A stretch of 64,000 nucleotides of DNA, from NCBI GenBank assembly GCA_964016885.1, contig OZ024746.1:80352001-80416000 (forward strand), in the 5' to 3' direction. The DNA is from Eledone cirrhosa (Eukaryota). How positions within the stretch are numbered: the stretch's first letter is position 1; each line of letters begins with the position of its first letter. Made by a program: the position numbers and the translations under genes. This document shows positions 6,966 to 54,705 of this stretch, one piece after another. The notes beneath the pieces were generated by a model that was given only the letters and a program-made list of their open reading frames with translations, was not told where the DNA came from and searched no databases.

Positions 6966-7786
6966 TATTGCAGCACGAAAGGGTTGCTGAAATAGCTATA
7001 ATGGTTTCTTATATAGACACAATGCAAGTAATTTTAGGGGGAAGGGGAAAGTCGATTAAATCGACCCCAGTGCGTGACTGGTACTTTATTTTATCGACCC
7101 CGTAAGGATGAAAGGCAGAGTTAACTTCGGCGGGATTTGAACTCAGATCATAAAGGGCCGTAACTCTATGCTGCAAAGCATGCAATGACAACAGTAATAA
7201 TAATATCAGCAACCACAGTAGTAACAGCAACTATAACAAATGCAACAACAACAACAACAGCAACATCCACAACAACAACGAGAGGATAAGAGCAACGACA
7301 GCTATGTTAATATGTGGCATGAGAAACGAATCCCTCCAGGTGAATATGAGTCTGTTTGTATTTTCCAATTATTCCCGCTGATATCTCCAAGTCAATCTCA
7401 CTAGATTTTCTGATGAGGTATTTTAATTTAACCTTTTACCTCAAAGGCATCCACGAGGCATTCAAGCTTACCATACACAGCTGTTCTATTTTTTGTCTGT
7501 GTTTGTATGTGTTTGTGTATATATGTATGTGTTTGTGTATATAAGTGTCTATACGTGTGTATGTCATGGGCGAGTGGGTGGTTTATTTTTTTTAGGAATA
7601 TTGCATATCTCTACATATCAATGAGCCTCACATGTGATAATACTTGTGCTGTGGTGATGTGCATGCCTTGTCTGAATTGTGTTAACTTCTGATGGTTCGT
7701 ATCCATTGATAATTGCTCATATCTATTTTTGCTCTCGACTTGAAATTACAGTAAGGATTTTATTGTCTAGTTAATTTAAAAGATGC

Positions 7787-7859
<73 letters not shown>

Positions 7860-8584
7860 ATGCACACACGCACACACACACATACACAGACGCACGCATA
7901 GACACATACACAGACCGATTGGCGACTGACGCACGCACAGAGACACATACACTCACAGACATACACACATATATACACACAAACAGACACACATACATGC
8001 GCAGATAGACATACGTACGGGCACAGACATACACACATACACACATATACACACAAACAGAGACGCATACGTGCGCAGATAGACATACGTACGGGCACAG
8101 ACATACACACATACACACATATACACACACACACACACATACACGCACATACATACACACAGACATATACACACACACGCAGACAATCATTCAGACAGTC
8201 AGTCAGACAGCAAACAGAGAGGCACAACACATATACACAAGACTCACACAAACACACACAGACACTCATATAGACAAACAGACACATACAAACACAGACT
8301 CACACAAACACGCAAACACACACAGACACTCACAGAGAGACAAACACAGACTCATACAAACACACTCACACAAACACACAGACACAGAAACACACACAGA
8401 CACGTAAACACACATATGCATATGATTGAATCTCGCATTTGTTTCGACGAAAGAAATGTCCAGTTATGCAACCGACGCAACTACTTGCACGTTATATATT
8501 TAGTGGGTGAGTGCGCTGAAGATACCTCTACAGATACCTGTGTCCTCGGCGTAATTCTCAACAACGGCCAGACTCAGTGTGACT

Positions 8585-9441
8585 ACGTAACAAGACTGGA
8601 CCTTTTATTTACAGTTGCAGCCCAATGTATGTAACATGGCTGACCATCTAAATTATAGCTCTTGTCAAATTTATGTAACATGACTGGTATTTCAAATTAC
8701 AGCTCTGGTCAAATTTGTGTAACATGACTGGTATTTCAAATTACAGCTCTGGTCAAATTTATGTAACATGACTGGTATTTCAAATTACAGCTATGGTCAA
8801 ATTTATGTAACATGGCCGACTATTCAGATTACAGCCATGGTCAAATTTATGTAACAAGACTGGTCTTTCAAATTACATCTATGGTCAAATTTATGTAATA
8901 TGGCCGACTATTCAGATTACAGCCATGGTCAAATTTATGTAACAAGACTGGTCTTTCAAATTACATCTATGGTCAAATTTATGTAACATGGCCGACTATT
9001 CAAATTACATTTATGGTCAACTTTATGTAACATGGCTGGCCATTCAAATTACAGCTATGGTCAAATTTATGTAACAAAGCCGGCCATTCAAATTACAGTT
9101 ATGTAACATGGCCGACTATTCAGATTACAGTTATGGTCAAATTTATGTAACAAAGCCGGCCATTCAAATTACAGTTATGTAACATGGCCGACTATTCAGA
9201 TTACAGTTATGGTCAAATTTATGTAACAAAGCCGGCCATTCAAATTACAGTTATGTAACATGGCCGACTATTCAGATTACAGTTATGGTCAAATTTATGT
9301 AACAAAGCCGGCCATTCAAATTACAGTTATGTAACATGGCCGACTATTCAGATTACAGTTATGGTCAAATTTATGTAACAAAGCCGGCCATTCAAATTAC
9401 AGTTATGTAACATGGCCGACTATTCAGATTACAGCTCTGGT
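8585..9441. repeat. 44-bp minisatellite with 88-bp and 76-bp higher-order repeats
   Basis: Unit ~GGTCAAATTTATGTAACATGGCCGACTATTCAAATTACAGCTAT; CAAAGCCGGCC recurs at 9075, 9151, 9227, 9303 and 9379 (period 76). Confidence 0.95.
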
Positions 9442-10359
9442 CCATTACTGAGAGACAAACTTTTTATTCACTCGATCATACGCCAGCAAATACACACACA
9501 GAGACACAGACACACAGACCTGCGCACTAACACCCCTCCCCACAGACACACACACACGATATAAGTGCCCACGAGCATTAAAAGATTTTCAAGGTCTAAC
9601 TCCCTTTAAAAGACGTTTTCTAGAAGAATCATTGATATTATTATAAGAGGGTCGGGCACCATGCTTCGACGCATAGAGTTATGGCCCTTGCCATTCTGAG
9701 TTCAAATCCCGCCGAGGTTAACTTTGCCTTTCATCCTTACGGGGTCGATAAAATAAAATACCAGTAATGCACTGGGTAATTGCTGGCCTTGTGCCAAAAG
9801 TAGAAACAATTATTACAAAGTATATGGCACAGTGAATGTGAAGACCCAGTCTTCGGCAATGTGTCTGGATGAGTGTATATGCATGTTTGTATGTGTGTTT
9901 GTATATATATATATGTATGTGGTTGTACATATTCATGTATGTGCGTGTGTATACGCGCTCGTGCGTGTGCGTGTGTGTGTATATATATGGGTGTATATAT
10001 GTGTATGTATGTGTATGTCTTTGTGTGTGCGTGTGTGTGTATGTGAGTATGTGTGTGTGTATGTAAGTATGTGTGAATGAGCATGTGTGTGCGTGCGCGT
10101 ATGTGTATGTGTGTCTGTATGTGTACGTCTGTGTGCGCATGGGCGAGCGTGTGTGTATGTGTGTGTGTGTATGTAAGTATATGTGTGAGCGTGTGAGCGT
10201 GTGCGAGTGAATAAAAATGTCTGTCTGTGTGTGTATGTGCGAGTGTGTGTATGTGAGTATGTGTGTGTGTGTGTGTATGTGAGTAGGTGTGTGTGTGTGT
10301 CTGTGTGTGTATGTCTGTCTCTGTCTATATGTGTGCCTGTATATGTATGTATATCTCTC

Positions 10360-14002: not shown

Positions 14003-14937
14003 CAATTCAATATATTTGGCAGAAAATAAAACGTAGATGCTTCAGATGCGATGTAAGGAGGGGAGAGGGGCAAAATTTACACAGTCGGAAACACAGTGGT
14101 CCAACACCGGTCCAATTTCGCCTTGGTTGACGCTTTGACTACTTCTTCTGGAAGCCGATTCCAGGATATAGAGATGCGTATCGAGAAAGCAGCTTTCCGT
14201 CTATTTAGGCGAAAGCGGCGGTGAAACAGATTTTGTCATGTCCACGTAGACCCCTTTCACGTGCCGGAGTGAATAGGAGATCTTGAGGGAGATCGTAATG
14301 GCCATTGAAGAGATTGTAAGCCAACATGAGATCGCCTCGACGCTCCAAGGAGAAGAGGTTCAGCTTCTGCAGCTGGCTTCCGTAGGGCAGCTCATGAAAA
14401 CCTTGTACCATACGAGTCGCTAGTCGTTGAACTCTCTCCAAGTGATGGATATCCCGGATGAGATATGGGTTTGATGCTTGGATGCCATATTCTAGGTGCG
14501 GTCTCACGAGGGCCACATAGAGAGGCCTGAACATTTCTGGAGTGAGTTTGGCAAAGGAGCGTCGAATAAGAAAAAGAGAGCTCCTTGCCTTGTTTGCGGC
14601 TTGAATGCAATGTTTTGATGGTTTGAAGGACGAGTCGACCAGCAGACCAAGATCTTTAGTCTTCTCAACCTCCTTCAAAGGAGTAGTGCCACCGTTGAAG
14701 GTAAGAGCTGAGTTATAAGGTCATTATCGACATTGAGGTATAAATCCCAGTCAATGGTCCAACTTGAGATTGTCGATCTCACTCCTACGGGCTACCATTT
14801 TCTCATCATCTGCAAATAGGAGCACGTTTCCACCAATCACGTCCGGCATGTCGTTGATGTATAGAAGGAAGAGAATTGGGCCCAACACAGAGCCCTGGGG
14901 AACGCCACTGCCTACATCCACCCCCGATGACAGACTG
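13996..14937 (-). mobile_element. 5'-truncated CR1/L2-group LINE with (TTGAA)n tail, in (TA)n
   Basis: [54 protein letters not shown]; TTCAA repeats at 13996-14010. Confidence 0.9.
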
Positions 14938-18178: not shown

Positions 18179-18251
<73 letters not shown>

Positions 18252-18754
18252 GTAGTTTAGAAAGCCACAACAATGCAGATGGGAAATCTCGAGGTAAGAA
18301 GTGAGTGAGAAATAGGAGAAAAGTGAAAATGAAAATGAAAATAAAACAAAGGTAGAAGGGTTACCGTCGTGGAGATTTAATCCCAATATTTCGGGCTCAC
18401 GCCCATCAACGGGGGAAAGTTCCAAAAGGGGGGGAACAGGCTAACCCGGAGAAAGTTGTATTGTCGTTAAAACATAGGAAAGCCGTTATGGGGAAAATTC
18501 AAACGAGGGAAAGAATGCACGTGCGCGTGATAGGCTGTGGCAAAAGCTACTGACCAATTGGGTTAAATCAATAGGGTGCGCTAGCGTGTGAAAGCCGTAA
18601 AATATGTGTGTGTAAATATATGTGTGTGTAACTGTGTGTGTATATGTGTATGTGTGTATGTATGTGAGTGTGTGTGTGTGAAAGATAGTGGGCCGTAGAA
18701 GCTGGAAAACAAAGAGTGTGAAAGGTGGTACATACATATATATATATATATATA

Positions 18755-19532
18755 TACAATATTAAATAAATGGAAACTATATTTATAAAACCATATTTAT
18801 TTCATTATATATATTTCAGGGATAACATATTAACAATATGCTATGCCTTCCTCAGACAAAATACAATATAAACAGTTTTATAGATAAATAGATTCGACAT
18901 ACCGTAACAACATCTACTTGCATTTGAGAAGGTTGATTTGGTTGTGACAAAATTGTACACAGAGAGAGAGAAAGAGAGAAAAAGAGAAAAAAGGAAAGAA
19001 AGACAGAAAACGAAGAAAAAGAAAAAAAGAAAAAGAAGAAATGCATGGAACAAAATAGAGAGATGGAAAGATAGATAAAGAGAAGAACTTCATGCAAAGA
19101 AACAGAAAGAGATATATATATAGAGAGAGAGAGGAAATAGATAGATACATATATAGAAAGCTAGGTAGTGGTACGACTGTTGAATAACGTATCAATGATA
19201 CATTTATTTATTTATTTATTTATTTAGCTCTAGTATTAATGTAAGGGAGATATATGGAGGGAAAACCAGCTGTTATATAGGGAGAGAAAAAAAATATAGA
19301 GAGAGAAAAAAAAGAGAGAGAGAAAATTCAAAAATATCCAGACACAGGCGGGGCGTAAAAATCCCTGTTTTAATGTAGAGGTAATAGTATTTACGAAACC
19401 AACCTCTGCATTGTAAATATCAGTATTCCTGAATGAGATATGTATCCACAATGTGTGAAAATTAATGATCTTATGTTTAGTTTTTTTAAAAATTCATATG
19501 TTTATGTGATAATTACAAACATCTATGTGAAT
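18755..19532 (-). repeat. 3' pseudo-LTR of the PLE
   Basis: Near-identical to 22600-23392; by eye only a few substitutions plus a length change in the GA-rich tract. Confidence 0.93.
18798..18863 (-). ncRNA. Minimal hammerhead ribozyme in the 3' pLTR
   Basis: Exact reverse complement of the 23520-23585 motif. Confidence 0.8.
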
Positions 19533-20252
19533 GTACATGATCAATTCTGCAAACCCTAAGTTCACAGAAAGTATTCTCAATGCGGTATAAAAATTTAAGT
19601 ATACATATATGTGTATATAGAGTCAATATTACTATTTCTGTCTCTACTCTACAAGATTATCTATCAAGCAAAGATAGAGCAGATTTCAATATACTAATAA
19701 AAATAAAAATAAAAATATATCGGAAACAAAACTAAACTAAAAATAAAAATAACAATAATAATAATAAGTAATAATAAAATAGAAAACTAAGAAATATTAC
19801 GAAAGAATATTACATATTAAAAATATTACATATTAAAAAATTTACATATTAAAAATATTAAAAATAAAAATTAGGAAATACTACATTAATAAAAATAAAA
19901 TAAACCACAAAGATCAACCCTTCAAAATTAATTGACAATATATTGCCAAGTTCATTATAAACATCAGAGTCGAAAAACAGATAAAGCCAAAAATTATCTA
20001 TCAAATCGCATCTAGCAAAGATCATTTCAAAAAGTATAGGATGCCCAATTTGGTCTACATGTGTTCTTATAATTAATATAGAAGTTTATCTAGTGTAACG
20101 TTTATTCGAAATATTTGGAGCATCAACTTTTAGGATAGCTTAATTTTTCATGAAGAATGTTTAAATAAATAAAATAAAAATAAAAAGAGTAAAAAGAGAA
20201 TCAAAGATTTATCGGCTAGTTTCCCATATAATTATAAATCAAACTAAATATA

Positions 20253-22465
20253 CTACATTTTAAATTTAAATTTATATTTAAACGTTGAGTTTAATCTATG
20301 TTTGCAACAACTGAATAAATTTGTCCGTAGATTAAGGGAATTTTTAGATTTTAGTATAAAGAATATCTCCTCTGCGCAGAGGTCACATGTCTCAGAGGAT
20401 GAATTAAAAGGAATCCCTCTTGAGACTATATTCCAAGCCATCGAATATCTAACGTTATCTAGCTTAAGTTGCCATAGTAGGCCTGATAGTGCCGTTGAAG
20501 ATTTTTTACTTGGATCTGTGAAAGAATTCTTGTGGTTATTATAGCGAAGTTTAAATTCCGTCGATGTGGAACCGACGTAGTTAAAAGAATTAGAGTCAGT
20601 ATTAACATTACAATTGTATACTATATTTTTAACTAAGCAGTTGTTATTTAACGGACATTTAGATCTATCTCTACAGTTACATTTGTTAACTTGTATATTA
20701 TTTATGCAGTTATCACTAGGCTTTAAGTTCCTATTATTTATTCTATTGATATTTTGTGCTAAATTTTTGGTGGATGAGTAGGTTAATTTAATTGTATGTC
20801 TATTGAAAATTGAGTGATATCTATGTGTTCTAGGGAAGCGATTATCAAGAGCTTTAAAAAATAGTTTAGCGATGTGGGTTTTAATGTTTAGTGAGAAAGG
20901 GGGGGGCAAACCAAATTATGTTCCTAGTTCTATTTCTTTTTTGGCTTTGGAATTATTGTAATGCTTTCTATTATAGTTGTTAAGGATGTTGCCGTAATTA
21001 AAAAAGTTGTTACTTTGTTTAGTTTGTCTATCATTATCTATGTACACAATCTTATCGGCGTATCCTGCTCTAGCTAATGCTTCATTGTAGTATTGGGCTT
21101 TTTCGTCGAAAATCTTTCTATTCGACGAGATCCTAGAGATACGTTTTTGGACAGAGTTTACTATAGTGTTTTTGACAGATCTGGGGTGGTTAGAGTTAAA
21201 GTTTACATAGTTTAAGTTTTCATTCAACTTGTGAAAAGGATAGTGAAGACATGTGTTGAGATTTAATGTTATATCTAGGAAATTGACTATTCTATGGTTG
21301 TTTTCAATTTCTATTTTAAGATTAAAGTAATTAAAAATTGTGTAATTTGTTTACATTTTCTATTTAGTTCAGAGTTATTATTATCAATAAGTAAAAGCAT
21401 GTCGTCTCTATATAAACCTCCGGTAGTACCGGGTATTTTCCTATGTAGCGAATTGATTAAAAATAAACCCACAAGGTCAGTTACCTGGGCTGAGTCGGAT
21501 GATCCCATAGTAATGTCAAAATTGCTATCTCTATCTGCTCTGGTCCATAGTTGGTCATTAAATTCTATCAAAGTTTTCCTAGCCGATAATATAATATGCA
21601 TTTCATTGCTAGTTAGGTCAGTATGTTTGAATGCGTAATTTAGTGCCTTATTTAGTAGATTAGGGGTAATAGAAGAATAATAGTTAGCTATATCAAGTTG
21701 AATAAACTTATTATTATTGTTATATTTAATTTGCTTAAACCACTCAACGACTTCTCCAGTTCCCTTCCACAAGCTCAGGTTAGATAAACAATCCAAGTTC
21801 TTAATTTGCTGTATCACCCTGTCAAGAATGTTTTTGCTTAATTTGCCCAGGTCCGATTTTGATGGTGCGATCAATCTAACTGGCAGGTCATTTTCAAAAT
21901 TCCGCTTGTGATCTTTCATATTGATCTTCGGTTTCCTGGGCACGAAAGGTTGTGTTCTGTTCTCAATTTCCAACTCGTGCATTATACAAGATGCTTCAAC
22001 ATTCATTTTCTCAAGCTCGGCCTTATCTGCTACCTTGTACTTTTTCCTCAGCTCTTTCAGTATGAGGCCATTATACATGTCTTTCTGCACTCCATAGAGG
22101 TTGTTGGTCTTGTCAGATTTCACCAAGATCTTCTCAGTTTTCTCTAAGCTCTCAATGTTATCCTTAATGCCTTTCAGATATTCCTGGCCTTTGAAGTTTC
22201 TCTTGAATTTGACCCCTTGTATGATAGAAATTATATCGTTTTCAAAGTCATATAAAAGTTTGTTAGGGGGTGGATTTCTTTTAGAATTGAAAACTTTGTT
22301 TAAGTCCGAGACATTTTCGTTTGTATTAGATTTATCAAAGTGGAATGCTCGCCACCTGATTCTCCTTATAAAAGAATCAGATTTATCTATTAATTGTTTT
22401 ATAAAGTCTTTGTTTCTAGGTAGAGGTATGTCTTTTAAAGAGGAAGTAATCTTAAAGAATTCCAT
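20253..22465 (-). pseudogene. PLE RT-endonuclease ORF, interrupted by about three 1-bp frameshifts
   Basis: ATG at 22465 (MEFFKITSSLKDIPLP). RT motifs FIQLDIANYYSSI, FDITMGSSDSAQV, GLYRDD and, after a frameshift near 21335, VNFLDITLNL. Thumb YVNFNSNHP. Linker KCNCRDRSKCPLNNNC. GIY-YIG-like NIVY...YVGST..FKLRYNNH, CDLC, NLRTNLFSCCKH. Split across track ORFs 21311-22495, 20916-21227 and 20253-20909. Confidence 0.93.
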
Positions 22466-22599
22466 TTTCCAGTTATAATATAAAGCGCTCAACAATATTG
22501 GAGCAAGATATATGGAAAGTTATATTTAAATTGTTGTGTTACAACTAGTAAATATTTATAACTGATATAAAAGCACTCGACAAATATTTGGAGTATATT

Positions 22600-23392
22600 T
22601 ACAATATTAAATAAATGGAAACTATATTTATAAAACCATATTTATTTCATTATATATATTTCAGGGATAACATATTAACAATATGCTATGCCTTCCTCAG
22701 ACAAAATACAATATAAACAGTTTTATAGATAAATAGATTCGACATACCGTAACAACATCTACTTGCATTTGAGAAGGTTGATTTGGTTGTGACAAAATTG
22801 TACACAGAGAGAAAGAAAGAGAGAGAGAAAGAGAGAAAAAGAGAGAAAAAGGAAAGAAAGACAGAAAACGAAGAAAAAGAAAAAAAGAAAAAGAAGAAAT
22901 GCATGGAACAAAATAGAGAGATGGAAAGATAGATAAAGAGAAGAACTTCATGCAAAGAAACAGAAAGAGATATATATATAGAGAGAGAGAGGAAATAGAG
23001 ATAGATACATATATAGAAAGCTAGGTAGTGGTACGACTGTTGAATAACGTATCAATGATACATTTATTTATTTATTTATTTATTTAGCTCTAGTATTAAT
23101 GTAAGGGAGATATATGGAGGGAAAACCAGCTGTTATATAGGGAGAGAAAAAAAATATAGAGAGAGAAAAAAAAGAGAGAGAGAAAATTCAAAAATATCCA
23201 GACACAGGCGAGGCGTAAAAATCTCTGTTTTAATGTAGAGGTGATAGTATTTACGAAACCAACCTCTGCATTGTAAATATCAGTATTCCTGAATGAGATA
23301 TGTATCCACAATGTGTGAAAATTAATGATCTTATGTTTAGTTTTTTAAAAAATTCATATGTTTATGTGATAATTACAAACATCTATGTGAAT
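22600..23392 (-). repeat. 5' pseudo-LTR of the PLE
   Basis: Direct repeat of 18755-19532; identity ends at ATCTATGTGAAT. Confidence 0.93.
22643..22708 (-). ncRNA. Minimal hammerhead ribozyme in the 5' pLTR
   Basis: Exact reverse complement of the 23520-23585 motif, ~180 nt upstream of the ORF ATG. Confidence 0.8.
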
Positions 23393-23712
23393 CTCTCTTT
23401 CTCTCTCTCTTTCTTTCTCTCTGTGTACAATTTTGTCACAACCAAATCAACCTTCTCAAATGCAAGTAGATGTTGTTACGGTATGTCGAATCTATTTATC
23501 TATAAAACTGTTTATATTGTATTTTGTCTGAGGAAGGCATAGCATATTGTTAATATGTTATCCCTGAAATATATATAATGAAATAAATATGGTTTTATAA
23601 ATATAGTTTCCATTTATTTAATATTGTAAATATACTCCAAATATTTGTCGAGTGCTTTTATATCAGTTATAAATATTTACTAGTTGTAACACAACAATTT
23701 AAATATAACTTT

Positions 23713-23720
<8 letters not shown>
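23393..23720 (+). repeat. Inverted partial pLTR of the PLE
   Basis: Reverse complement of ~22508-22835; extends ~90 bp further toward the ORF than the 3' pLTR does. Confidence 0.92.
23520..23585 (+). ncRNA. Minimal type I hammerhead ribozyme in the inverted pLTR
   Basis: TATTTTGT (helix I) - CTGAGGA - AGG.ATAGCATATT gtt AATATGTTAT.CCT (helix II) - GAAA - TATATA-T-A (palindromic mini helix III, AUA cleavage triplet) - ATGAAATA (helix I partner). Confidence 0.8.
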
Positions 23721-23751
<31 letters not shown>

Positions 23752-23754
<3 letters not shown>

Positions 23755-23948
23755 CGAAGGAAATGTGGTAAGGAACCAGGTGGACCATAACGCACCAAAG
23801 TACTCAATACTTGAGGTAGTAGAGTGGGTAATAGGAACGAGTAAGACCCCGACAGCTGAGCTCAAGCCGTTTCGACGGCTAATTCTGGACTGTGTCCAGA
23901 ATTAGCCGTCGAAACGGCTTGAGCTCAGCTGTCGGGGTCTTACTCGTT

Positions 23949-23952
<4 letters not shown>
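23752..23952 (-). mobile_element. Asymmetric hairpin element (family X), copy 1
   Basis: 59-bp perfect arms 23832-23890 and 23894-23952, loop TGT, 80-bp unpaired tail; (TA)n flanks. Confidence 0.85.
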
Positions 23953-24036
<84 letters not shown>

Positions 24037-24702
24037 CATATATGTATATATATATATATATAGGAACGAGTAAGACCCCGACAGCTGAGCTCAAGCCGTT
24101 TCGACGGCTAATTCTGGACACAGTCCAGAATTAGCCGTATATATATATATGTACTTACTAACATAGTAGTGTTTTCGCAATCAGGTGATACCGCACTGTA
24201 CTGGGACGATTTGATTCGAGACACGTATCCGCTCTCTCATTGAAATCAGGAATATTTCCTTGAATCATAATGAACTCTTTAGATATACCGATACACAAAC
24301 AAAACAACATGGATTATCAATAAAATTAATAAACTAATTGTATTAATAGCACGCGCGTTTGGTGTGTGTATGTATGTATGTGAATGTGTTTGTGAATATG
24401 TTTGTGTGATTGTGCATGTGTGCTTGTATGTTATGTCTGTGTGTTAGTATGTGTCTGTATGCATGTGTAAATAGGAAAGTTTTCTTCTCAAATATTTTCT
24501 ATTAAAGACATCTGTTTTTCTTCTCTTTGTGCAGAAAAGGAGATCGATCCAACTAGTTTCAGCTTTTGTGTAACAACACTTGAAACTAATCAAATCAATC
24601 CCACAAACAAAATCTATAGTGCAACAATCTTGTTTACTTTTCACATTGCGGCTACATAGGGTGTTTGATAAACACATACACATGCACACACACACATACA
24701 CA

Positions 24703-25090: not shown

Positions 25091-25264
25091 AAACACACAC
25101 ACATATATATATTCATTTTATTAAGGCTAAATAGTGAGTCTTGTTACTCTGGAGTTTCACCTGTTTATCAAGGGGTCACCTGATTACCCAAGACTCACTA
25201 TTTAGCCTTAATAAAATGAATATTAAAACCTGAACTCTTTTTTTCTCTCAGCAGTCAACCACAT

Positions 25265-25718
<454 letters not shown>

Positions 25719-25722
<4 letters not shown>

Positions 25723-25943
25723 AACGAGTAGGACCCCGACGGCTGAGCTCAAGCCGTTTCGACGGCTAATTCTGGACTAAAAAAAAAAATTTTTTTTTTT
25801 TTTTTTAGTCCAGAATTAGCCGTCAAAACGGCTTGAGCTCAGCCGTCGGGGTCCTACTCGTTCCTATTACCCACTCTACTACCCTAAGTATTGAGTACTT
25901 GGGTGCGTTATGGTCCACCTGGTTCCTTACCACATTTCCTTCG

Positions 25944-25946
<3 letters not shown>
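25719..25946 (+). mobile_element. Asymmetric hairpin element (family X), copy 2
   Basis: Same arms and tail as copy 1; the apex is an A-run followed by a T-run; (TA)n flanks. Confidence 0.85.
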
Positions 25947-28284: not shown

Positions 28285-29875
28285 TATATAATATAAATAA
28301 TATATATATATATAGACACATCCCCCACTGCCATTATTTCTGAAACAATATAATTTTCTCTAGAACATGACCACAAGTAAGCTGTCATCTGACGCCATAT
28401 TAATATCATATCAATTACTTGTGATAATTAATGGAACAGAACGCAATTACAACGATCATTAATGGAATAATTATAACATTTTAAGTGGTTTTACTCAATT
28501 TATTCGTTGTCAATAAAATATGCAGATGATCATTATGTACATCTATTCTAATTCTGATAATAGAAACATTGTATTAAATGATTGTTGAATATCTTTGTTT
28601 CCTTTACATGACTCCTTTACGGAGCCAAAGCATTGTAAACTCCTAACCCTACTTTAAGGTTTCCATGTTTCTAGTCTTCTGTAACGACTTCGGATTTCAT
28701 ATTACGTCCTAAGTAACCCATGTAAAAGCCACTGAGGGAGTAAATTATGTTTATAAACGAACGTACTTCCCCGCTAATACGCTGCGAATTGACTGAGTCG
28801 TTAGAACGTCGGATACAATGCTTTGCGTTTTTCGTTCCGGCTTTCTGCTCACTAAGTTCAAATTCCACCAACGTCAATTTTACCTTTCATTCATTCAAGG
28901 TCGATAAACAAAAGTAGCAGTCTTGTACTGGGGTCGATTCTTCCTCTATATTTCTTTCTCACTTCCATTTTCTCATTCTATATCCTTTTTTGGAAGAAAT
29001 CTTCTGTATTCAGACCTGGAGGGGAGATGGTCTCCATCGGGTTTTAAAGTTTCCTAGAAACGCTGTATGTCAATGCGGCGCCCCTATGCCTCCCTCGGGA
29101 GTTATAGGATTAGAGAGGGAGATTATTTATATGATGCATTTTGTTGGTGCCACTCTCGAGTGTGGTCTGACTAGTCAGTTACACTTTAGCGTTTAGTCTA
29201 CCTCAATTGAAAACACTAACGCCAAACCATAACGTAATCCTTTTCTTTTAGACAACCCGTGTCCATGTATACTACAACAGTCCGCCGGCCTGCTAAAGTA
29301 ACGCCTATTGGGTTGTTGTTGTTTTTTCTCGCAATTATCTTCGTATTCAAGTGTTAGATGGAGAAGGGCAAATCCATAGAAGCCAAGGGGCGGAGCCATG
29401 AATTCTTACACCTCTCCGATATATGGCTGCTTAATTTGACTTAATGGTACCGCTTGCACTACATACACACACTTCGGCGACGCAACATTTAGCTAGAATC
29501 ATATAAAAGCAGAATAATATTAAAACTGTATGCAATTTATAGAGTGATGATCGACTAAGTCACAGGTGTGTGACGAATGATATTGATAATTACAACAAAA
29601 TAATTGTTTCGACGTTAGGCACAGGGCCAGCAATTATCAGTGCATTACTTGTACTTTATTTTATCGACCCCGTAGGATGAAAGGCAAAGACAACCTCGGC
29701 GGGATTTGAACTCAGATCGTAAAGGGACGTAACTATGCTGGAAAGCATGGCGTCCGACCCTCTACCGATACTGCCAATCCACCAACAAAATAATAAAGTC
29801 TGTTTCTTATTTTTCTATCTTAGAATCCAAGGACACACATTTAAGAAAGTGGACTTTGATCGATTACATTCGATT

Positions 29876-30362
29876 TTAGCGAACACAAAGTCGACCTACA
29901 ATTAGGAATGAGTAGCAAAGCAGTCAATAAGAGTAGGTCCTCAGAGTAATAACATTACGTTTAGATAGCTTGACAAATTGAAAATTGCGGCAGGCGAAAC
30001 CCAACCATTCAATACCAAAACAACGAAACAACTAATCAGGTTAAACAACAGACCTGGACAGATCGAACGATATTCTGCAATACGTCCGATATGTTTCTTT
30101 AGTATGGGATGCTTAAAGCGTCCGTAAGTGGTAGGCGGTTTTGAGCACTCGACGCTCTTACAGAGCAGAGTATCACATAAGAAACGGAGAATCAGTTTTG
30201 CGACGAATAAAATTTATTAGACATATTACAATCGTTTCTCTGGCGACCAGCTCGAGGCACGATCGATTCAATGATCGAACCTGACTCTGAAATCGTCAGA
30301 GAAACGATTGTAATATGTCTAATAAATTTTATTCGTCGCAAAACTGATTCTCCGTTTCTTAT

Positions 30363-30368
<6 letters not shown>
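29876..30368 (-). mobile_element. Hairpin-terminated repeat next to (TA)n
   Basis: ~75-bp inverted arms 30171-30245 and 30294-30368; the body 29876-30050 resembles 56980-57140. Confidence 0.7.
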
Positions 30369-32309: not shown

Positions 32310-33262
32310 AGATAAATTTCTTTATTAGCCACAAGGGCACAAAAGAAGGGGACAAATACAAATGGGGAGTTTACATACAGGTATATGAAAATAAAACTAT
32401 TAATAAAATAACAAATAACAATTGAAATCCCCAATAGCGGGGAGGCGTTACACAGGGGTTGTACACACCCCGAAAAAATGTACAACCCTCATCTCCAGGA
32501 GCACCAAGAGTGAGTACTCCCTTCCTCTCTTCCTCTTTTTCCTCAACCTACAGGCTTATATAGAGAGAAGGCCCAACCACTCGGGCCATCTTTGCCACAT
32601 TCACCCACCTTTTATAAAATTTGCTGGGGTACAGCACCTCTCTCTCCATCCTGATTCTTCTTCCAAAATGATATTTGAAAAAACGAATCAGTTGCTCGCC
32701 GGAGAGAAAGGTGTCTGACCTCAGCCCTTTTAACCTCGTCCACCATGTAACCTAACCATAGCCATAACACATAGGAAAACCGCCTCTCACTCGTTTTTGA
32801 AGGAGGGTGGCGGTTTGATCATGACAATGAACTTGGTGGTCAACTGGATTGGCCCCACTCGCGACAATAGTCGTTCTACATAGCCCACAGGTCGGTAACG
32901 CCCGGGCAGTGTACAAATGCGTGCGCGACGGTTTCCTCGTCGCACACGCATCTCGGACAGATCTTTTTCGAAGGGTCCCTGCCCGGGCGCCCGTGTCTGT
33001 AGAGCTTGTCTCGAACTGGTAGAGCTCCTCGGTAGCACTGCCAGGCCAGGGACTTTTGGAAGTTGTCCATTGGTCCTGGGCGGAAGGTCCTACCGAACAG
33101 ACTGGGCAGTTCGTCCTCCTCTACGCCTAGTGTTTCTCCGAGCGCGTCATCGCACTTGCTGCGGACCAACCCTCTATAGAATGTCGAAGTGGAGTCTCCA
33201 CAGATCGCCGGGTCTGTTTGCCAGAGGACTGTGAGCGCCTGAGCACATTCGATATGCCAGTC
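32310..33262 (-). mobile_element. 5'-truncated Tx1/L1-clade LINE in (GATA)n
   Basis: zf-RVT-like AWQCYRGALPVRDKL...CPRCVCDEETVAHAFVHCP; 3' UTR ending GGCTAATAAAGAAAT followed by (TATC)n. A second 3' tip is at ~58045-58090. Confidence 0.85.
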
Positions 33263-35813
33263 TAGATAGACAGATAGAGAAAGTAGGGGAGATATGTATA
33301 CGTGTTTGGGTGGGTGAGTGTGTGTACGTCTATGTACGCGTGTGTTAGACCTCCAGTTGACTGTTGGTTCCAACAATGAGAGTTCCAGTTGATTAGATCA
33401 GCAGAACTTGTCAAATTAACGTGCAAGTGGCTGAGCATTCTTCAGGCCCGTACACACTTAATGTAGTTCTTAGGAAGATTCAGCGTGACAGTGTTTGACA
33501 AAGCTGGCCCTTTCAATAACAAGTACAACTCTAAATAGAGTTTTGCTCAAAAACATACCACGCTGCCGTGAATCGAACTCATAACTTTATGATCGAACCA
33601 CCTATTCACTAAGCCACGTGTCTTTACATATACACAATCATACATTCACATATATGCACACACATTCGTACATACGCACATTCATACACACACATACGTA
33701 CACACACATACATAATGCATACATGCATATATACACATATATACATACTTAGATACATGCATACTTGTGTACATAGTAACATTCACATGTATACACATAC
33801 ATACCTACATATACACATATATACATTCACACACAATCATTCATACATACATGCATTCACGCGTGCATACGTACGTGCATACATACAAACAAACATACGT
33901 ACATACATATATATACATATACACATAGAAACATACATACATAACAAACAAACATACGTACATACAAACAAACATACATACATACATACATACATACATA
34001 CATACATACATACATACATACATACATACATACATACATACATACATACACACAAATGAAGGACCGGTTCTCACGTTTCCATGTTGTGTTTATCGTGAGG
34101 AGCACTTCCTGTATAAGTTTGCCAATGGCAAATAGAGAATGACGTCATGTGTAAGGTTTGGTTGGGGGGGGGGGGTGATTGTTTCATCAATTGTTTAAGA
34201 ATATATATTTTTTTTTTCATTAAAACAAACTTGAAATTTCACATTATCATTCTAGATATAAATATATTAATTATATATAAGGAACGATCATGACTGTGTG
34301 GTTAAGGAGTTCACTTTGCTATCACAGGGTTCGGGATTCAGTCACACAATACGGCATCTTGAGCAAGTGTCTTTTACTATAAACTCTTATGTGCCTAACA
34401 CCCGTGACATGCTTACAAGATCAGAAAACAGTACAGCTCCCATGACTATCGGAAACATTTTTTCACGCTCAGAGTTGCTAAAACATGGAACAAACTACCT
34501 GCATCAGTTGTTAACTGTCGAGACAGTGCATCCTTCAAAACTTCCATGCTTCCCGAATTTAGCCAACACTACACCTGATCCCCTCCCCTCATACACACAC
34601 ACTCATGTCTATGTATGTCTGTGTGCGTATTATGACTCATATACTGTTCACTTTCCTAACTTTTGTTCGCGGTGAATTTCCAGTATCGGTAGAGGGTCGG
34701 ACGCCATGCTTTGACGCATGGAGTTACGGCACTTGCCATTCTGAGTTCAAATCTCGCCGAGGTTAACTTTGCCTTTCATCCTTACGGGGTCGATAAAATA
34801 AAGTACCAGTAATGTACTGGGTAATTGCTGGCCTTGTGCCAATAGTAGAAACAATTATTTTATGTACTATACATGCACCTTTGATGAGTTGTAGTGCACC
34901 TGAGCATTGTACACAAAAATTTCATTATCATGTGAGTGGAATTTAGTTGACGGAAACTCAGAAGCCCGTCGTATATATGTAACTTTGATGTTAAAATGAA
35001 AATCGATAATTGTAATAATTATTTCTAAGCAATTATATCTAACCAGTACTTAACTGGTATTTTATGTTATCGACCTGGGAGGATAAAAGGCAAAGTTAAC
35101 CTCTACCGATATGATAATGGTTTCTGATTTAAACATAAGGCCGACAATTTTGGAGAAGGGGAAAGTCAATTAAATTGACCCCACTGCATTTTATACTTTT
35201 GGTACTTTATTTTATCGATCCCGTAAGGATAAAAGGCAAAGTTAACCTCAGCGGGATTTGAGCTCAGAAAGTAGAAAGCCTCAACTAAATACCGCAGACC
35301 ATTTTGTTCGTCGCTCTGCTGATATCACAATAAAAATAACTTAGGGAAAAGACCATCAATTTGAAGGTAGGATAAAGTCGTACTTCGATTTATTGACCCC
35401 GGAAGGATTAAAGGCAAAGTTAACTTCATCAGGATTTGAACTTACAACTTAAAGAGTCGACACAAATACTGCTCAATATTTGTCCGACATTCTAACGTTT
35501 CTGCGGATCCACCGCCCTAAAAATACACTAATAATACTAACGACGAAAAATAAAATTCGCAAACAAATATTTGTTTCACAAAGAAGATAAAAATCAATTT
35601 CGTTTGTATACATTAGCAAACATATGTTCTAACTTTGATCTTTCGTATACAATTACGTAAAACCATTATGATTGCTATGTATATATCGATTAAAATTTTT
35701 AAATTACCTTGAAAACTAACAGACGGACAATTTAAATGGAATGTTTATATACATATATGAGTGTTTTTCTCTCTCTCTCTTTCTCTCTTTCTCTCTTTCT
35801 CTCTTTCTCTCTT

Positions 35814-36804: not shown

Positions 36805-37915
36805 TAGATATTATATATATATATATACAGGGAACACTCGTAAAACTGTGCTAATAAGTGCAGAAGGAGCCGCTTCCGCCGATTGTCCGCGTTAAGCAAT
36901 GGAGAGTTTAATATTATGTATGTATACGATACTGCGAAATATGATGAACAGTAACAAAATTACATAAAATTACTTCGACATCATATCAGAAACATATGAA
37001 ACAGAATTACATATATATTTTATAAAATTATTTGACACTGCATTATGTAAACATAAAATGTTAATACTATAAATTGTTAATTTAATTTTCTTGCGGTAAA
37101 TGACATATGGTTTTTATGTGGTGGAGATGAAGGTTGGGGGTAAAGATGATAACTTGTCATCGTGAGAATGTAAGAACTATGATATTCCACTGATTCTTGT
37201 CTCCCACTTGTAGAAAAGCCTTGTGGGAATGACAGAGGAGGGTCTGAGTCAAGAACAGAAATGTTATGAATATTACCGTGCTTTAAAGCTGCAGCAAGTT
37301 TAAGACGAAATAGCTTAAAGAGCAAGTCGCTATTTCACATATATTTCTTATTGATGTTGTTTCCAGATAATTGTTTCTACTTTAGGCACAAGGCCAGCAA
37401 TAACCCAGTGCATTACTGGTACTTTATTTTATCGACCCCGTAAGGATGAAAGGCAAAGTCAACCTCGGCGGGATTTGAACTCAGATCGTAAAGGGACGTA
37501 ACTATGCTGGAAAGCATGGCGTCCGACTCTCCACCGATACTGCCAATCCACCGTTGTTGTTTCCAGATAATGTACTCTTAAGGCGCTAAGACGTTGATAA
37601 TATTACTGAACATTGGTTTCTGTTGAACAGTCAATGTACAAAATGACGTTATCTACAGACTCTCGTATTACACTGCGTTTCCATTTCTTATGCAACTGTT
37701 CCTCTTCATTATCCTCAATATGTCTATTGTCACCGAGAACTTCGAACCATTATTCTGTAGTTTAACACTTTGTATACCTTAATGTATATGTAGAGACTCG
37801 TATCCCCTTGTGGAGTTGTAAGGGCGCAATTGTGACATAAGTGTACCTTGGGTATTTTAAAATAGGCAGAGCCCATCCCTCTCCAGTTCTGAACAGAGCG
37901 GACGTTTTATAGAGA

Positions 37916-39132: not shown

Positions 39133-40413
39133 ATTCCTAAACAATACCGGAATCTTCCACATCAACAGTGACATAGACCGCCTCTACTTGAAACGTAAGC
39201 AAGGAGGCAGGGGGCTAACATCAGTCCAGACGGCATTTGAATGTCGCATCATATCCCTCCGACATTTATGAACCTCCAAACGTAAGAGCCATCTACTGTC
39301 TGCATAAGACAGATAAGATCATGAGAGTTGGAACGGAACTCCTTGAAAGATACTCCCTGCATGATAATAAAAAGCTCATACCCAGGGGAATTACCCAGCA
39401 ATACTGCAGCGAATCCATGGATGAAAAACTGCATGCTTATCAGCAAAAAGTCATACATGGATATGTTGCCAGGAAGCTCCAGAGTGAGAGTAATATAGAT
39501 AAGCAAAGTAGTCTATCTTGGACCAACAACCGCTATATTGGCTCTCACTTTGAAGGATATGTGTTTGCAATCCAAGAACAGGAAATCAACACAAAATAGC
39601 TGATTCACAAAAGAGATAGGGATGCAGGCAAAACACATAGATGTGACAAGTGCAGACTCTGCAGAATTAACATCGAAAATGTCACCCATGTCATAAGCAG
39701 CTGTCCAAAGATGCCATCACGGTACTATCTACTTATGACACATGATGTAGTAGCCAAAACACTGTACAGTGCAATCCGTAGAAAAGATAGTCCGACAATA
39801 AACATTAAAAGTTACAGAAATGTGGAAGACATATACATACATAATATGAAAGAGTACTGGTGGAATGTTCCAGTAAAAACCCCAATAAAATGCAAGCATA
39901 ACAGACCAGATATAATGATATGGGACAGGGAAAAGAAGGCATGCAGAGTAGTGGAAATTAGCTACCCAGCAGATGCCAATATAATATTAAAGATCAGCGA
40001 AAAGGGGAATATCTATGCAGAACTAATGAGAAATCTGCAAATACTACAGCCTGACTATACCTTCAGATTTATACCTGTGATCATTGGGACACTGGGATAT
40101 GTTAGTAACTGCCTCAGAAAGAACACGACTAGTTAAGAAATTACAAGTACAATCCATTAATGGAACAGTAAAAATATGTAAAACATTCCAAAATTCTGCA
40201 TCTAATAACTGCATATACACATGTGCAGATAGAAAGCATATGCACATGCACACATACAACTCAAAACATACACATCCACACATACATTAACATCCATACC
40301 TACACACACACATGCATGTGTTTAAATTCCAATGAGGGAGTCTTGTGTTTGTTAGAAACCGACTCTCTCTCTCTCTATTGGTAAAAATTTATAAAATTAT
40401 AAAACCAGAAGAA
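39133..40413 (+). mobile_element. 5'-truncated R4/Dong-clade (restriction-like endonuclease) LINE in (TACA)n
   Basis: HINSDIDRLYLKRKQGGRGL; CRLC..ENVTHVISSCP zinc knuckle; HDVVAK; HNRPDIMIWD, VVEISYP; stops and frameshifts present. Confidence 0.9.
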
Positions 40414-40500: not shown

Positions 40501-41336
40501 ACAAAAAAAGTTGTGCATGGATACTTGAGACGTAAAACACAGACCATAGAGGGGATAAACCACTCAAAAAGCCTGGCATGGAGTTCCGACAAGTTTTGAG
40601 GGATATCTCTATGCAATTCAGGAACAAGAACTCCCTACCAAATATCTGCTGCACAAAAGAGGAGGGCCATCAACTGACAATAAATGCAGGCTATGTAAAA
40701 CAAAGATCGAAGATGTAAGCCACATTGTTGCCAGCTGCGAAAGAATGTCATCTCGCTACTACCTCCCCATGAGACACGATGGGATAGCTAGAACCATCTG
40801 GAACGCACTTCGGAAAACAAAATTAAAAACAAACGACGAAGAATATATTGAGACAGATGGCACTAAGGAATACTGGTGGAACCTGAAAATAAAAACTGCC
40901 ACCAAATTAAAGCACAACCGGCCTGAAATTGTTGTTTGGGACCACAGATTGAAAACGTGTTCTGTTGTGGAGATCAGCTGCCCACTTGATGTAAACGTTG
41001 TCAGAAAAATACAGGAGAAGGAGGACATCTACGGACCATTGATGAGGAGTTTACAAATCCAGTATCCAAGATACACCTTTAGCTTCATATTCATCATTAT
41101 TGGAGCTACGGGTTATATACCAACCCGCTTGGACCAAAGTATGACCGAACTTGGATTTGCGGACAAAAAGCGCAGCTCCCTAATTCATAGTCTAAAAATG
41201 GCTGCGATAGCTGGCACCTTCAAAATTTGCAAAACATTCTTGCGATTCAAGGGATAACAATTTCTTTTCTTTTACAACCTTGCCACCAGGAAGGTGGCCG
41301 GTCAAAAATATACTCGAAATTAAGAGAAAGAGAGAA
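40501..41336 (+). mobile_element. Second, distinct R4/Dong-clade LINE fragment in (TACA)n
   Basis: CRLCKTKIEDVSHIVASC, RYYLPMRHDGIAR, KHNRPEIVVWD, VVEISCP, KICKTFL; ends AGAGAA then CATACAT. Confidence 0.9.
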
Positions 41337-43100: not shown

Positions 43101-43290
43101 TAGGAAAAGAGTCGTGACCCCGGCGGCTGAGCTCCGGCCGTTTCGACAGCTAGGACCTAGCTGTCGAAACGGCCGGGGCTCAGCTGTCGAGGTCCTAACA
43201 TCTTTTTCTATTACCCACTCTACTACCCTAAGTATCGAGTACTCTGGTGTGTTATGGTCCACCTGGTTCCTTACCACACTTCCTTCGTTA
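43101..43290 (+). mobile_element. Asymmetric hairpin element (family X), copy 3, more diverged
   Basis: TAGGAA...GCCGTTTCGACAGCTAGG a CCTAGCTGTCGAAACGGC... followed by the same tail ending CCTTCGTTA. Confidence 0.82.
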
Positions 43291-43374: not shown

Positions 43375-44236
43375 AGAGGGAAAGAGAGAGAGAGTGAGAG
43401 AGATGTAATATCCCGACCACGTGCGTTGTTATTTTTATAATCAATATCAAGGGCAGTGGATTAACAGTATCGGTAGGGAGTCGGACACCATGCTTTGCAG
43501 CATAGAGTTACGGTCCTTTACTGTCTGCGTTCAAATCTCGCCGAGGTTAACTTTGCCTTTCATCCTTACGGGGTCGGTAAAATAAAGTACCAGTAATGTA
43601 CTGGGGTCGATTTAATCGACTTTCCCTTTACTCCAAATTACTGGCCTTGTGCCTATATAAGAAACCATTATCACATTCAATATCATCATCATCATTTTCA
43701 ACATCATCATCATCATTATCCTCCTCCTCATCATCATCATCATCATTACTAAATTCAGCAGCAGTATTATTATCGTTGTATTGTCGATATTGTAGTTATT
43801 GTTTTTTCTTGTTTATATTTTTGTTATTCTTGTATGTTTTATTAATGATTCTGTTCTTGTGCTTGATGTCTTTTCTAGATTTATAGAAGCTGCTGTTGCC
43901 GTTGTGGTTGTTGTTACTGTTGTTGTTGTTGTTGTTGTTCTGGTTGTTGTTGTTGCCGTTGTTGTCGTTATAGGTGATGTTACTAACGTCTGCTGGTAAT
44001 GATTATGATGATGAGGCTGATTGTTGTTGTTGTTGTTGTCATTATAGGTGATGTTACTGCTGCTGCGGATAATGATTATGAAGATGAGGCTGATGATGGT
44101 GATGATGGTGATGATGGTGATAATGATGATGGTGGTGATGGTGATGATGGTGGTGATAGTGATAATGATGATGATGATAATGGTGATGATGATGAGCCTG
44201 GTGATGATGGTGAAGATGGTGATAAAGATGATGATA

Positions 44237-46622: not shown

Positions 46623-48342
46623 TTTGTGTTGTGGTTATTAATGGTAATAAGATGAGGTGGGGAGGGGAGTGGTGTTTGTGGTAGTATTTTGTCTTTGTTT
46701 TTCGTTCTGCTATTGTTGTCATTATTGTTGTAGTGTTTTCTTAGTTATTATTGTTGCTTTTCTTGCATTGTGCTCCCCCAGCCCCCTTTTTTTTAGGTTT
46801 GTGGGTGGGGGAGTTTATTTTTGTTTTGTGTTGTTTTTGTGGTTTGTTTTTGTTTTTATGGGGTGTTTTGGTTTTTATCTTACTGAAATTAGTGGTGAAG
46901 AAAATTAAAGGATGTGGTAACATACAAAAGGAAATTGTGGACAGGAGGGCTAGAGGAGAAGAATGAAAGGGGCGGTAATCTAGAATGAATATAGGAGTAG
47001 AGTATTGTAGTGTATTGTAAAAGTATTAAAGGGGTGTGTTGGATCTCTGTCGGTTTTGACGACGTGTGGTCCAGTTGATTCGATCAACGGAACAGCCTGC
47101 TTGTGAAATGAACGTAGACGAGACTGAGCATTACACAGACACGTGTACACTTAAAGCAGTTCTCAGGGAGATTCAGTGTGACACAGGACGTGTCAAGACT
47201 GACCTTTAGAATTACAGGTACAGCTCATTTTTGCCAGCTGAGTGGACTGGAACGACGTGATATATTGTGTTTTGCTCAAGCACACACACACCCTCTAAAA
47301 GAATGATAAATAAAATCGACCCGATTGGTATTTGAACAAAAATATTATTAACAATAACTGTTTCTACTTTAGGCACAAGGCCAGCAATTACCCAGTTCAT
47401 TACTGGTACTTTATTATTAACAATAACAATAGCACTTAAGTTTTCTTCCAATAATTTAGTAATGCTAATGATATTCCTAGTAGAAATCCATTGGGTGGTG
47501 GATGGCTCTTGCTTTATCGAATATCTTGTGGCATGAAGGCAAATGGCCTAGTGGTTAGGGTTTTGGACTCCCGATTATAATGTTCAGCAAAACACTTTAT
47601 TTCACGTTGCTCCTTGTAAGTGACCGATAGTGTTAACAATGGAAATACAAATGGAACCATTGTTTCCCTGATCTGATAAGATAAGTGTCTCCCTTTTCTT
47701 CTTGTTTTTATGAATATATCAGGAAATATGAAGTAGTGTACTATAACCGGAAAATAAGTCCCACAGAAACGCGCGCATATGGAATGGACCTCCGTCGGTT
47801 TCGAAAATAAGTGTCCAGTTGTTTAATCAATGGAATAATCTGTTCTTGAGCAAGACGCTTCATTTTACGTTGCTTTTTCGAGATAGGATTGAGATCACTT
47901 ATTAAAATAGCCGAGAAACATCCTACGAGATTCGACCTCGTTGGAAGCCTACTAAACTTACATAGGTACGAGGCGCAAGTTTTTTTTTTTTGGAGGGGGG
48001 GGGGGGGGGGGGAGTTTCAGTACCATGTTGATATCACAACTAGCTTCCAGATATAATGACTGCACTGATACAAAATATATGGAAGTCTAACGATTAAAGA
48101 GACGCTGAATATTACTAAGTAAGTTCTAGAGCAGATTGCTTCGATACCTTATCACAAACCATCATAGGGGTTCAGTTCATCACTAAAAGCTAACAAAACA
48201 CTCCATAACTATACAGTACATATGCTCTTTGGATCTGTACTTCGTTCTTTATTTGAGTTAGTCATCACGGTGTTATGTTAACAAGTCTATTTATCGATAG
48301 GCGGTTCAGAGTCAAAAAAGTTTAAAATGTATGCATTATTAT

Positions 48343-48733
48343 TGGTGGATTGGCAGTATCGGTAGAGGGTCGGACGTCATGCTTTGACGCATAGAGTTAC
48401 GGCCCTTTCCATTCTGAGTTCAAATCCCGCCGAGTTTAACTTTGCTTTTCATCCTTACGGGGGTCGATAAAATAAAGTACCAGTAATACACTGGATAATT
48501 GCTGGCCTTGTGCCAAAAGTAGAAACAATTATTATTATAATTGAAAGGCGGTAGATTGGCAGTATCGGTATAAGGTCGGACGCCGTGGTTTGCAGCATGG
48601 AATTACGGCCCTTTACGGTCTGAGTTCAAATCCCGCCGAGGTTAACTTTGCCTTTCATCCTTACGGGGTCGATAAAATAAAGTACCAGTAATACACTGGA
48701 ATAATTGCTGGTCTTGTGCCAAAAGTAGAAATA
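48343..48733 (+). mobile_element. Two head-to-tail SINE family A copies
   Basis: 48343-48530 and 48545-48733, separated by an (ATT)n tail. Confidence 0.9.

Positions 48734-50286: not shown

Positions 50287-50369
<83 letters not shown>

Positions 50370-54676: not shown

Positions 54677-54705
<29 letters not shown>

Follow-up and report, generated by a model that had tools for sequence, protein, structure and literature searches.

A frameshifted Penelope-like element assigned to the Hydra clade and flanked by (TA)n tracts in the genome of Eledone cirrhosa

Comparison with described Penelope-like elements

The described systems closest to the locus reported here are Penelope-like elements (PLEs) of the Hydra clade (Craig et al. 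2021, PMC8557442; e.g., Hydra-1_Obim of Octopus bimaculoides, Hydra-1_Ajap, and Penelope-n_HM) and Poseidon of Anolis carolinensis (PAc; Frangieh et al. 2024, PMC11167929). Craig et al. characterize Hydra elements by a C-terminal endonuclease, no insertion in the fingers domain (IFD), the motifs RWK and DKT, and no CCHH, together with CxCX5C, CxxC, CxH, a hammerhead ribozyme, and (TA)n targets. The Poseidon enzyme nicks and extends both strands and starts reverse transcription at two internal sites bounding a "tail", with ribozyme cleavage not needed; how PLEs form tandem and inverted ends is described by Craig et al. as an open question. We analyzed a 64,000-nt stretch of the Eledone cirrhosa genome (assembly GCA_964016885.1, contig OZ024746.1, forward-strand positions 80,352,001 to 80,416,000), called the window below, which contains a 4.96-kb PLE on the minus strand (18757-23720) enclosed by two (TA)n tracts. 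With a probability of roughly 0.75, we read this element as a Hydra-clade copy that likely arose by recent twin-strand target-primed reverse transcription (TPRT) into a (TA)n microsatellite and that is broken by three frameshifts as assembled.

In its own direction, the PLE consists of an inverted copy, a pseudo-long terminal repeat (pLTR), a 95-bp extension, an open reading frame (ORF), a long 3′ untranslated region (UTR), and a second pLTR. The upstream (5′) pLTR (22603-23391, minus strand, 789 bp) and the downstream (3′) pLTR (18757-19532, minus strand, 776 bp), the latter ending 48 nt beyond the predicted ribozyme cut, form a direct pair that is 97.5% alike, with four substitutions and three gap events in AG-rich tracts. 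The original prediction had counted three pLTRs; the direct pair was found, and the third is instead a 5′-truncated inverted copy of 329 bp (23392-23720, plus strand), which carries a third hammerhead (core 23528) and matches 22508-22836 at 100%. Zero differences across these 329 bp make the predicted youth of the element plausible and a recent insertion likely, although pLTR divergence is a weak clock for PLEs. The flanks are alternating TA tracts of 21 nt at the 3′ end (18736-18756, a target remnant) and 38 nt at the opposite end (23716-23753, common to the PLE and the neighbouring fold-back element F1), and other copies of the element also end on (TA)n, in agreement with the predicted target. 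The 95-bp extension (22508-22602, minus strand) corresponds to the tail, separating two inferred reverse-transcription starts. The unit length of 3,846 bp exceeds 3 kb because the stop codon lies 1,398 nt from the ribozyme core, a distance that is mostly 70-290 nt in relatives; the unique portion of this AT-rich 3′ UTR spans 19533-20252 (minus strand). PAc is likewise built as pLTR-ORF-pLTR, with a tail delimited by two 3′ ends, a hammerhead upstream of the reverse-transcription starts, and AT-rich targets, but it belongs to a different clade, has a 30-40-bp tail, and starts reverse transcription inside the ORF, whereas the two ends of the window PLE, separated by 95 bp, precede the ATG and adjoin (TA)n. 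An inverted 5′-truncated copy is also noted for Penelope-13_HM (PMC8557442).

Every coding motif named in the original prediction, from the reverse transcriptase (RT) and DKT to the linker and the GIY-YIG variant, was present on the minus strand. ORF piece 1 (21338-22465, ATG at 22465) encodes an N-terminal domain with RWR (22357) and SDKT (22117-22106), followed by the RT core with DIANYYSSI (21694-21668), TMGSSDSAQ (21511-21485), and YRDD (21412-21401). A first one-base frameshift in a homopolymer run (21333-21337) follows directly after YRDD, and ORF piece 2 (20946-21332) contains RT motifs D/E (NFLD 21284) and the thumb (SNHP 21194). The stretch 20899-20945, with RNIIWF in the third frame, is flanked by two compensating one-base homopolymer frameshifts, and ORF piece 4 (20253-20897) encodes the thumb end, the CxCX5C linker (CNCRDRSKC, 20681-20655), the GIY-YIG endonuclease (NIVY 20627, YVG 20579, R, H, E, and N), CxxC (20387), and CxH (20306). 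Telomerase RT was the top fold match of the RT-piece model (predicted local distance difference test score, pLDDT, 91; E 5e-7). For the C-terminal model (pLDDT 84), I-TevI ranked first over 88 residues (root-mean-square deviation 2.2) with a Z score of 8.7, only modestly above the background stated by the tool, and the next three matches were also GIY-YIG-type nucleases. Foldseek returned no match for the endonuclease model at E ≤ 0.001, in Pfam the three ORF pieces had no match and one of eight homologues had, at best, a GIY-YIG match below threshold, and PDB sequence searches with the window pieces and their profile were blank. Telomerase-like RT and GIY-YIG, partial-tandem pLTRs, an inverted 5′-truncated copy, and a tail are traits of PLEs at large.

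Block by block, the window protein matches the Hydra rows of Fig. S7 in Craig et al. (PMC8557442), including the C-terminal CxxC/CxH segment that is missing from the Penelope/Poseidon, Nematis, and Neptune rows of that figure. Traits shared with the Hydra clade are an RT that precedes a GIY-YIG endonuclease lacking CCHH, DKT, RW(K/R), YRDD, the CxCX5C linker, CxxC and CxH around a conserved E and N, a 3′-end hammerhead, and the (TA)n target. The IFD is absent, the motif A-B spacing of 63 aa being equal to that of a Neptune-type protein. At the RWK site, the RWR variant also occurs in Hydra-1_Crog, and by inspection of alignment A1 a GVKF string lies at a different place from the N-terminal GxKF/Y, a motif that Hydra elements do not conserve. 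The DKG, CX2-5CxxC linker, and CCHH of Neptune are not found in the window PLE; nor, by motif comparison, are the DKG and CCHH of Penelope/Poseidon and Nematis, or the N-terminal endonuclease, IFD, and lack of a canonical hammerhead that mark Naiad/Chlamys. The window PLE differs from described Hydra elements in its 3.85-kb unit, its 1.4-kb 3′ UTR, its frameshifts, and an AT..AT helix III where the listed Hydra hammerheads all have AC..GT, and it differs from Hydra-1_Obim in protein, hammerhead, and 5′ sequence, as compared by inspection of the supplement text.

We further compared the protein with its relatives. Searches with the RT piece found 61 longer relatives (best identity 43%) and, at E ≤ 1e-40, 36 of similar length; an organism name is attached to just three proteins, all from Argonauta hians (P0003, P0139, and P0144; 40-42% identity). 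At 40-43% identity to the window RT piece, P0001-P0004, P0139, and P0144 are too distant to belong to the same family. Motif counts were made in 88 Hydra-like proteins, a motif-based label, and 70 Neptune-like proteins, labelled by published motif definitions; YRDD was left out of the counts because the Hydra-like set had been selected by it. DK[TS] was present in 82 of the 88 Hydra-like versus one of the 70 Neptune-like proteins, CxCX5C in 55 versus none, and cysteines between GIY and YIG in none versus 50. For the RT tree, 30 Hydra-like and 20 Neptune-like proteins were picked and six were dropped (core not cuttable), giving 45 rows including the window; two Neptune-type ORFs beside Hydra-like elements (loci L001 and L017) could serve to seed the outgroup, for which P0210 was searched. 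The window and 26 Hydra-like rows were split from the 18 Neptune-like rows with support of 100/100, and the window protein grouped with P0001-P0004 (98/99). These results suggest that the window PLE represents a new family of the known Hydra clade, in line with the clade originally proposed from the motifs. Of 1.84 billion protein clusters searched with a profile of alignment A1, 5,244 reached E ≤ 1e-30 and 22,908 reached E ≤ 1e-10, counts that are inflated by fragments and, at weaker E, by other clades; the 27 families originally listed may cover only a small part of the Hydra clade. The literature searched on the clade, octopus PLE hammerheads, and palindromic non-autonomous PLEs, a scope exclusive of Repbase, Dfam, and most subscription papers, described neither this family nor F1 and contained no study of a Hydra-clade enzyme. 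Separately, in L001 (182-2680) and L017 (27-2384), an intact Neptune-type PLE ORF immediately precedes a Hydra-type element on the same contig, which suggests that target tracts are shared across PLE clades.

Frameshifts and other copies

The original prediction called the element near-intact; the coding region has no nonsense substitution, but three one-base frameshifts, all in homopolymer runs (near 21333-37, 20936-45, and 20899-906), interrupt it. The assembled frame ends at 21311 after 384 aa, past YRDD. Because the product is cut before the thumb and endonuclease, the copy as assembled would make no working enzyme and could not drive anything; it is an ordinary repeat and likely dead. Programmed frameshifting was considered and rejected, since relatives have one frame; those of P0001-P0004 run uninterrupted for 759-806 aa. 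A single uninterrupted ORF is a Hydra trait, and the three breaks of the window copy are wholly or partly missing from other copies.

Those copies were sought in 16 sequencing runs, of which 12 contained part of the stretch and none contained half its words; no RNA source was listed among the 16, which has no bearing on expression, and four (X1, X4, X5, and X14) were mapped to 19900-22810. Depth dropped from 3′ to 5′ across the ORF in X1, X4, and X5, as expected of 5′-truncated copies. The first break was missing from 79%, 76%, and 100% of depth in X1, X4, and X5 (X14 had two reads). In X1, X4, X5, and X14, respectively, the break near 20899 was missing from 6%, 100%, 100%, and 48% of depth, and that near 20944 from 32%, 79%, 41%, and 0%. 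Among the 40 differences listed of 416, 39 were coding, and the lineage has been under purifying selection for protein function because 29 of these 39 were synonymous, versus 20% expected (p 3e-13). Exits into (TA)n were seen at 22594 (5,297 reads in X14, 24 contigs in X1, and three in X4) and at 22508 (one contig in X4). These are the two ends seen in the window, 22594 being given with TA ambiguity, and the anticipated (TA)n preference thus recurs in X1, X4, and X14.

Predicted hammerhead ribozymes and proposed insertion into (TA)n

As predicted for the three pLTR copies, three identical hammerhead motifs were found, with core starts at 22700 (minus), 18855 (minus), and 23528 (plus). The 5′ pLTR copy (22643-22708, minus strand; core CTGAGGA at 22700) has its predicted cut at 22651/22650, and the 3′ pLTR copy (18798-18863, minus strand) has its core CTGAGGA from 18855. 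Each comprises an 8-bp helix I, the core, a 13-bp helix II with one mismatch, GAAA, and a palindromic (AT)4 helix III, and the expected minimal form therefore applies to helix III and not to helix II. Helix III, a palindromic ATATATAT of A/U only, reads like the target repeat. In relatives, a pattern search found motifs in 56 of 78 related loci, and helix III was AC..GT in all 69 hammerheads, as it is in the Hydra rows of File S2 of Craig et al. (PMC8557442). The computed cost of closing helix III in the monomer is 2.9 kcal/mol, and the intermolecular AUAUAUAU duplex reaches only -3.2 kcal/mol versus -8.2 to -12.3 for three AC..GU helices (computed); because closure is costly and the duplex so weak, the ribozyme is expected to be a poor cleaver whether monomeric or dimeric. 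A single minimal hammerhead did not cleave in the work of Cervera and de la Pena 2014 (PMC4209133), and dimers cleaved at a low level. The PLE hammerheads of that study resemble those of the window in being type I motifs in pLTRs with a short palindromic helix III and a long helix II, and in occurring as opposite-strand pairs a few hundred bp apart that derive from truncated PLEs, whereas the window motif has an A/U-only helix III that reads as a microsatellite and a helix II closed by A-U in place of the usual G-C. With Rfam, nothing in the window reached the gathering score of a family; two sub-regions searched at E ≤ 5 gave microRNA matches, which are generic hairpins, but no hammerhead, and the predicted minimum-energy fold of the motif differs from the hammerhead fold (z -0.79). 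The motifs are thus putative hammerheads, called from the conserved core and hand-checked helices I-III.

Both 3′ ends of the window PLE lie downstream of the predicted ribozyme cut, by 48 and 143 nt, so the template of both complementary DNAs (cDNAs) was RNA that extended across this cut. In a model drawn from in vitro work on the anole Poseidon enzyme, the transcript of an intact family member would be a more-than-unit RNA, the GIY-YIG domain would nick both strands of the self-complementary (TA)n, which presents an identical target on either strand, and reverse transcription would begin inside the RNA at two sites downstream of an uncut ribozyme, possibly aided by a short stretch of UA pairs between RNA and primer. 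One of the cDNAs would have reached 4.6 kb and the other 329 nt, and their ends would have been joined head to head to give the inverted repeat. The ribozyme was probably dispensable for the insertion step, as its cut site was traversed in making both cDNAs. The 22508 end is the only perfect alternating T/A run of at least 6 nt downstream of helix III, and support for primer pairing is modest because the 22603 end is an unexceptional match. Priming at the ribozyme cut site was rejected as the main route, with no such end among the 24 loose ends listed of 714. A circular-monomer and a tandem template were also compared, and the pLTR differences are too few to decide between them.

The ribozyme and tail were also far more abundant in reads than the ORF. 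In all four mapped runs, bins at 22546-22741 (about 200 bp) were 8-24× deeper than the deepest ORF bin, read depth not being equal to copy number by the tool's own warning, and their reads run on into varied helix II sequences. This pattern points to many short or divergent relatives that would share ribozyme and tail, and the population may consist of truncated sister families or non-autonomous elements. A few reads near 22600-22654 show back-jumps of about 55 nt or strand changes.

Neighbouring fold-back elements and alternative explanations

The original prediction further proposed the PLE as driver of local hairpin elements. The fold-back F1 forms a separate family of about 210 bp with no similarity to the PLE, represented by four long-armed copies (23749-23953, 25718-25946, 43102-43290, and 61893-62101) and one extra arm (24060-24138). 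Its arms have fixed, different ends on (TA)n, the palindrome centre is nearly fixed in three of the four long-armed copies, two centres carry oligo-A/T, and a hammerhead-like motif is represented by its 3′ half alone. Fold-back E3 (50366-51714) is large, with microsatellite-rich arms and an intact hammerhead pair (cores 50513, minus, and 51629, plus; AC..GT helix III), and looks like a twin 3′-end insertion of another PLE family; hammerhead pairs in opposite orientation have been tied to truncated PLEs by Cervera and de la Pena (PMC4209133). Unequal arms, one short and one tailed, occur in the four long-armed F1 copies, in E3, and in the palindrome at 30171-30368, which also has a hammerhead-like 3′ half; the tail of the longer arm measures about 80 bp in F1 and about 62 bp in E3, and the arms of both end on (TA)n with 2-3 shared letters. 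Arm differences within an F1 copy number 0, 1, 2, and 10 of 47 nt versus 2-14 between sites, the within-copy distance being below any between-site distance in three copies, while in the 43.1-kb copy the arms differ from each other (10) almost as much as from arms elsewhere (12-14). This pattern and the oligo-A/T centres fit de novo formation from a single-arm RNA.

None of eight local fold-back or tail stretches resembled the PLE ribozyme-tail more than shuffles did (61-235 of 300 shuffles scored as well), self-BLAST and, among the matches listed, a word-7 search found only low-complexity matches between the local elements and the PLE, and the window holds no other PLE ORF. Among the 3′ ends in the supplement of Craig et al., none contained any of six short motifs taken from the local elements; two chance matches fell inside coding sequence. 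Thus, the driver role is not supported for this copy, frameshifted as assembled before thumb and endonuclease, or for its family; that enzymes of its kind made the hairpins fits their anatomy, but nothing links the hairpins to this family. PLE-type enzymes of other families likely made them, and the nearby fold-backs would be twin-priming products from the RNAs of those families, piled into the same microsatellites. The non-LTR (long terminal repeat) retrozymes of Li et al. (bioRxiv 10.64898/2026.07.22.740005) are head-to-tail hammerhead-monomer arrays related to the PLE pLTR, unlike the local elements, which are inverted two-arm units with no similarity to the window pLTR.

Other features of the window include a nested inverted repeat (54635-56131) with 456-bp arms that are 100% complementary and a hammerhead-like core pair (54966, minus; 55769, plus), whose 3′ end resembles an older family at 25377-25617, 51704-52038, and 54330-54647. 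Short palindromes adjoin (TA)n tracts at 25109-25223, 58144-58218, and 58636-58816 as well as at 30171-30368, and an element of about 490 bp (18243-18736), with a TA tract on each side and a decayed hammerhead-like stretch (a hairpin and then GAAATAT), adjoins the 3′ end of the PLE. A dispersed repeat of about 200 bp occurs in about ten copies of 85-94% identity (2280-2503, 6998-7182, 9646-9815, 29597-29790, 34661-34861, 37367-37553, 43429-43671, and 48337-48742); it contains strings that we take to be A-box- and B-box-like and is likely a tRNA-derived short interspersed nuclear element, and ARAGORN found no tRNA. By inspection, ORFs at 14208-14720, 32879-33397, 39219-40133, and 40559-41254 resemble non-LTR retrotransposon fragments with C-terminal RT, zinc-knuckle, and restriction-like endonuclease parts, and a tandem array of 88- and 76-bp units spans 8584-9442.

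Several observations weigh against our reading of the PLE as a frameshifted, twin-primed Hydra-clade insertion. Its unit of 3,846 bp compares with a Hydra description of "generally <3 kb", which is descriptive and not strict; its 95-bp tail is longer than the usual 30-40 bp; the 22603 end is an ordinary TA match, with 24 of 176 positions scoring at least 7/9; and PAc, the source of the mechanism and a member of a different clade, was reported to prime without target homology (PMC11167929). The RT tree was built without named Hydra, Poseidon, Nematis, Naiad, or Chlamys references, because six motifs from proteins of five named families were found in none of the 209 fetched proteins. This composition of the tree, together with a general layout common to all PLEs, leaves some room for membership in Penelope/Poseidon, Neptune, Nematis, or Naiad, an assignment we regard as highly improbable given DKT in place of DKG, the missing CCHH, a C-terminal endonuclease with the Hydra-only CxxC/CxH end, and an RT piece with no pairwise BLASTP similarity to the Neptune-type protein (E 0.17). 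The frameshifts might instead be long-read assembly errors in an intact, potentially active source copy. That every break is a one-base homopolymer indel, that nonsense substitutions are absent, that the first break is missing from most or all of the depth in three runs, and that the inverted copy is identical to its partner speak for such errors, yet no simple indel of one base separates the pLTRs at any of the 11 homopolymer runs that each contains; what is seen instead is gaps in AG tracts and a single shift of a T/A boundary. Moreover, in some runs no more than a fraction of the depth lacks the second and third breaks, which may therefore be common to real copies, and we consider assembly error possible but clearly the less probable account.

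For the fold-backs, mobilization of F1, E3, and others in trans by the enzyme of this PLE family would accord with the shared (TA)n target and tail anatomy, the position of F1 (23749) on the very same TA tract, the Hydra-like layout of the E3 hammerhead, and the non-autonomous PLE relatives known in other animals (Li et al., bioRxiv 10.64898/2026.07.22.740005). The lack of shared sequence, a further point against our reading, does not exclude such mobilization through RNA structure; however, the partners reported by Li et al. share pLTR sequence with their PLEs, no stretch here aligned significantly with the ribozyme-tail, and (TA)n is the target of Naiad and of further Hydra families as well, which leaves this proposal doubtful. 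Still less probable is an origin of the fold-backs as DNA-level fold-back elements, similar to miniature inverted-repeat transposable elements, or as assembly artefacts. The nearly fixed centre of F1 and its lack of a complete hammerhead core would suit that origin, but unequal arms with fixed distinct ends on (TA)n, oligo-A/T at two centres, copy-specific variants common to both F1 arms, the E3 hammerhead pair in the orientation linked to truncated PLEs, and the recurrence of the 22508 end of the PLE itself in an independent run make it unlikely and argue for retrotransposition.

Beyond the twin-strand insertion of a Hydra-clade copy, we tentatively propose a wider picture, with a chance well short of even, in which helix III has come to replicate the repeat that the element targets, (UA)4, non-autonomous ribozyme-plus-tail elements of about 200 nt are supplied in very large numbers by this lineage or by sister families, and fold-backs of fixed architecture such as F1 form a class of short PLE-mobilized elements rebuilt at each insertion by twin priming on palindromic (TA)n from a single-arm RNA. 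Four things deserve further attention: the restriction of helix III to A and U, the length of both the UTR and the tail, the depth of the ribozyme-tail population, and how large the clade seems to be. With two defined reverse-transcription starts, one target repeat, and an inverted junction, the locus is a clean natural product and offers a basis for an in vitro assay.

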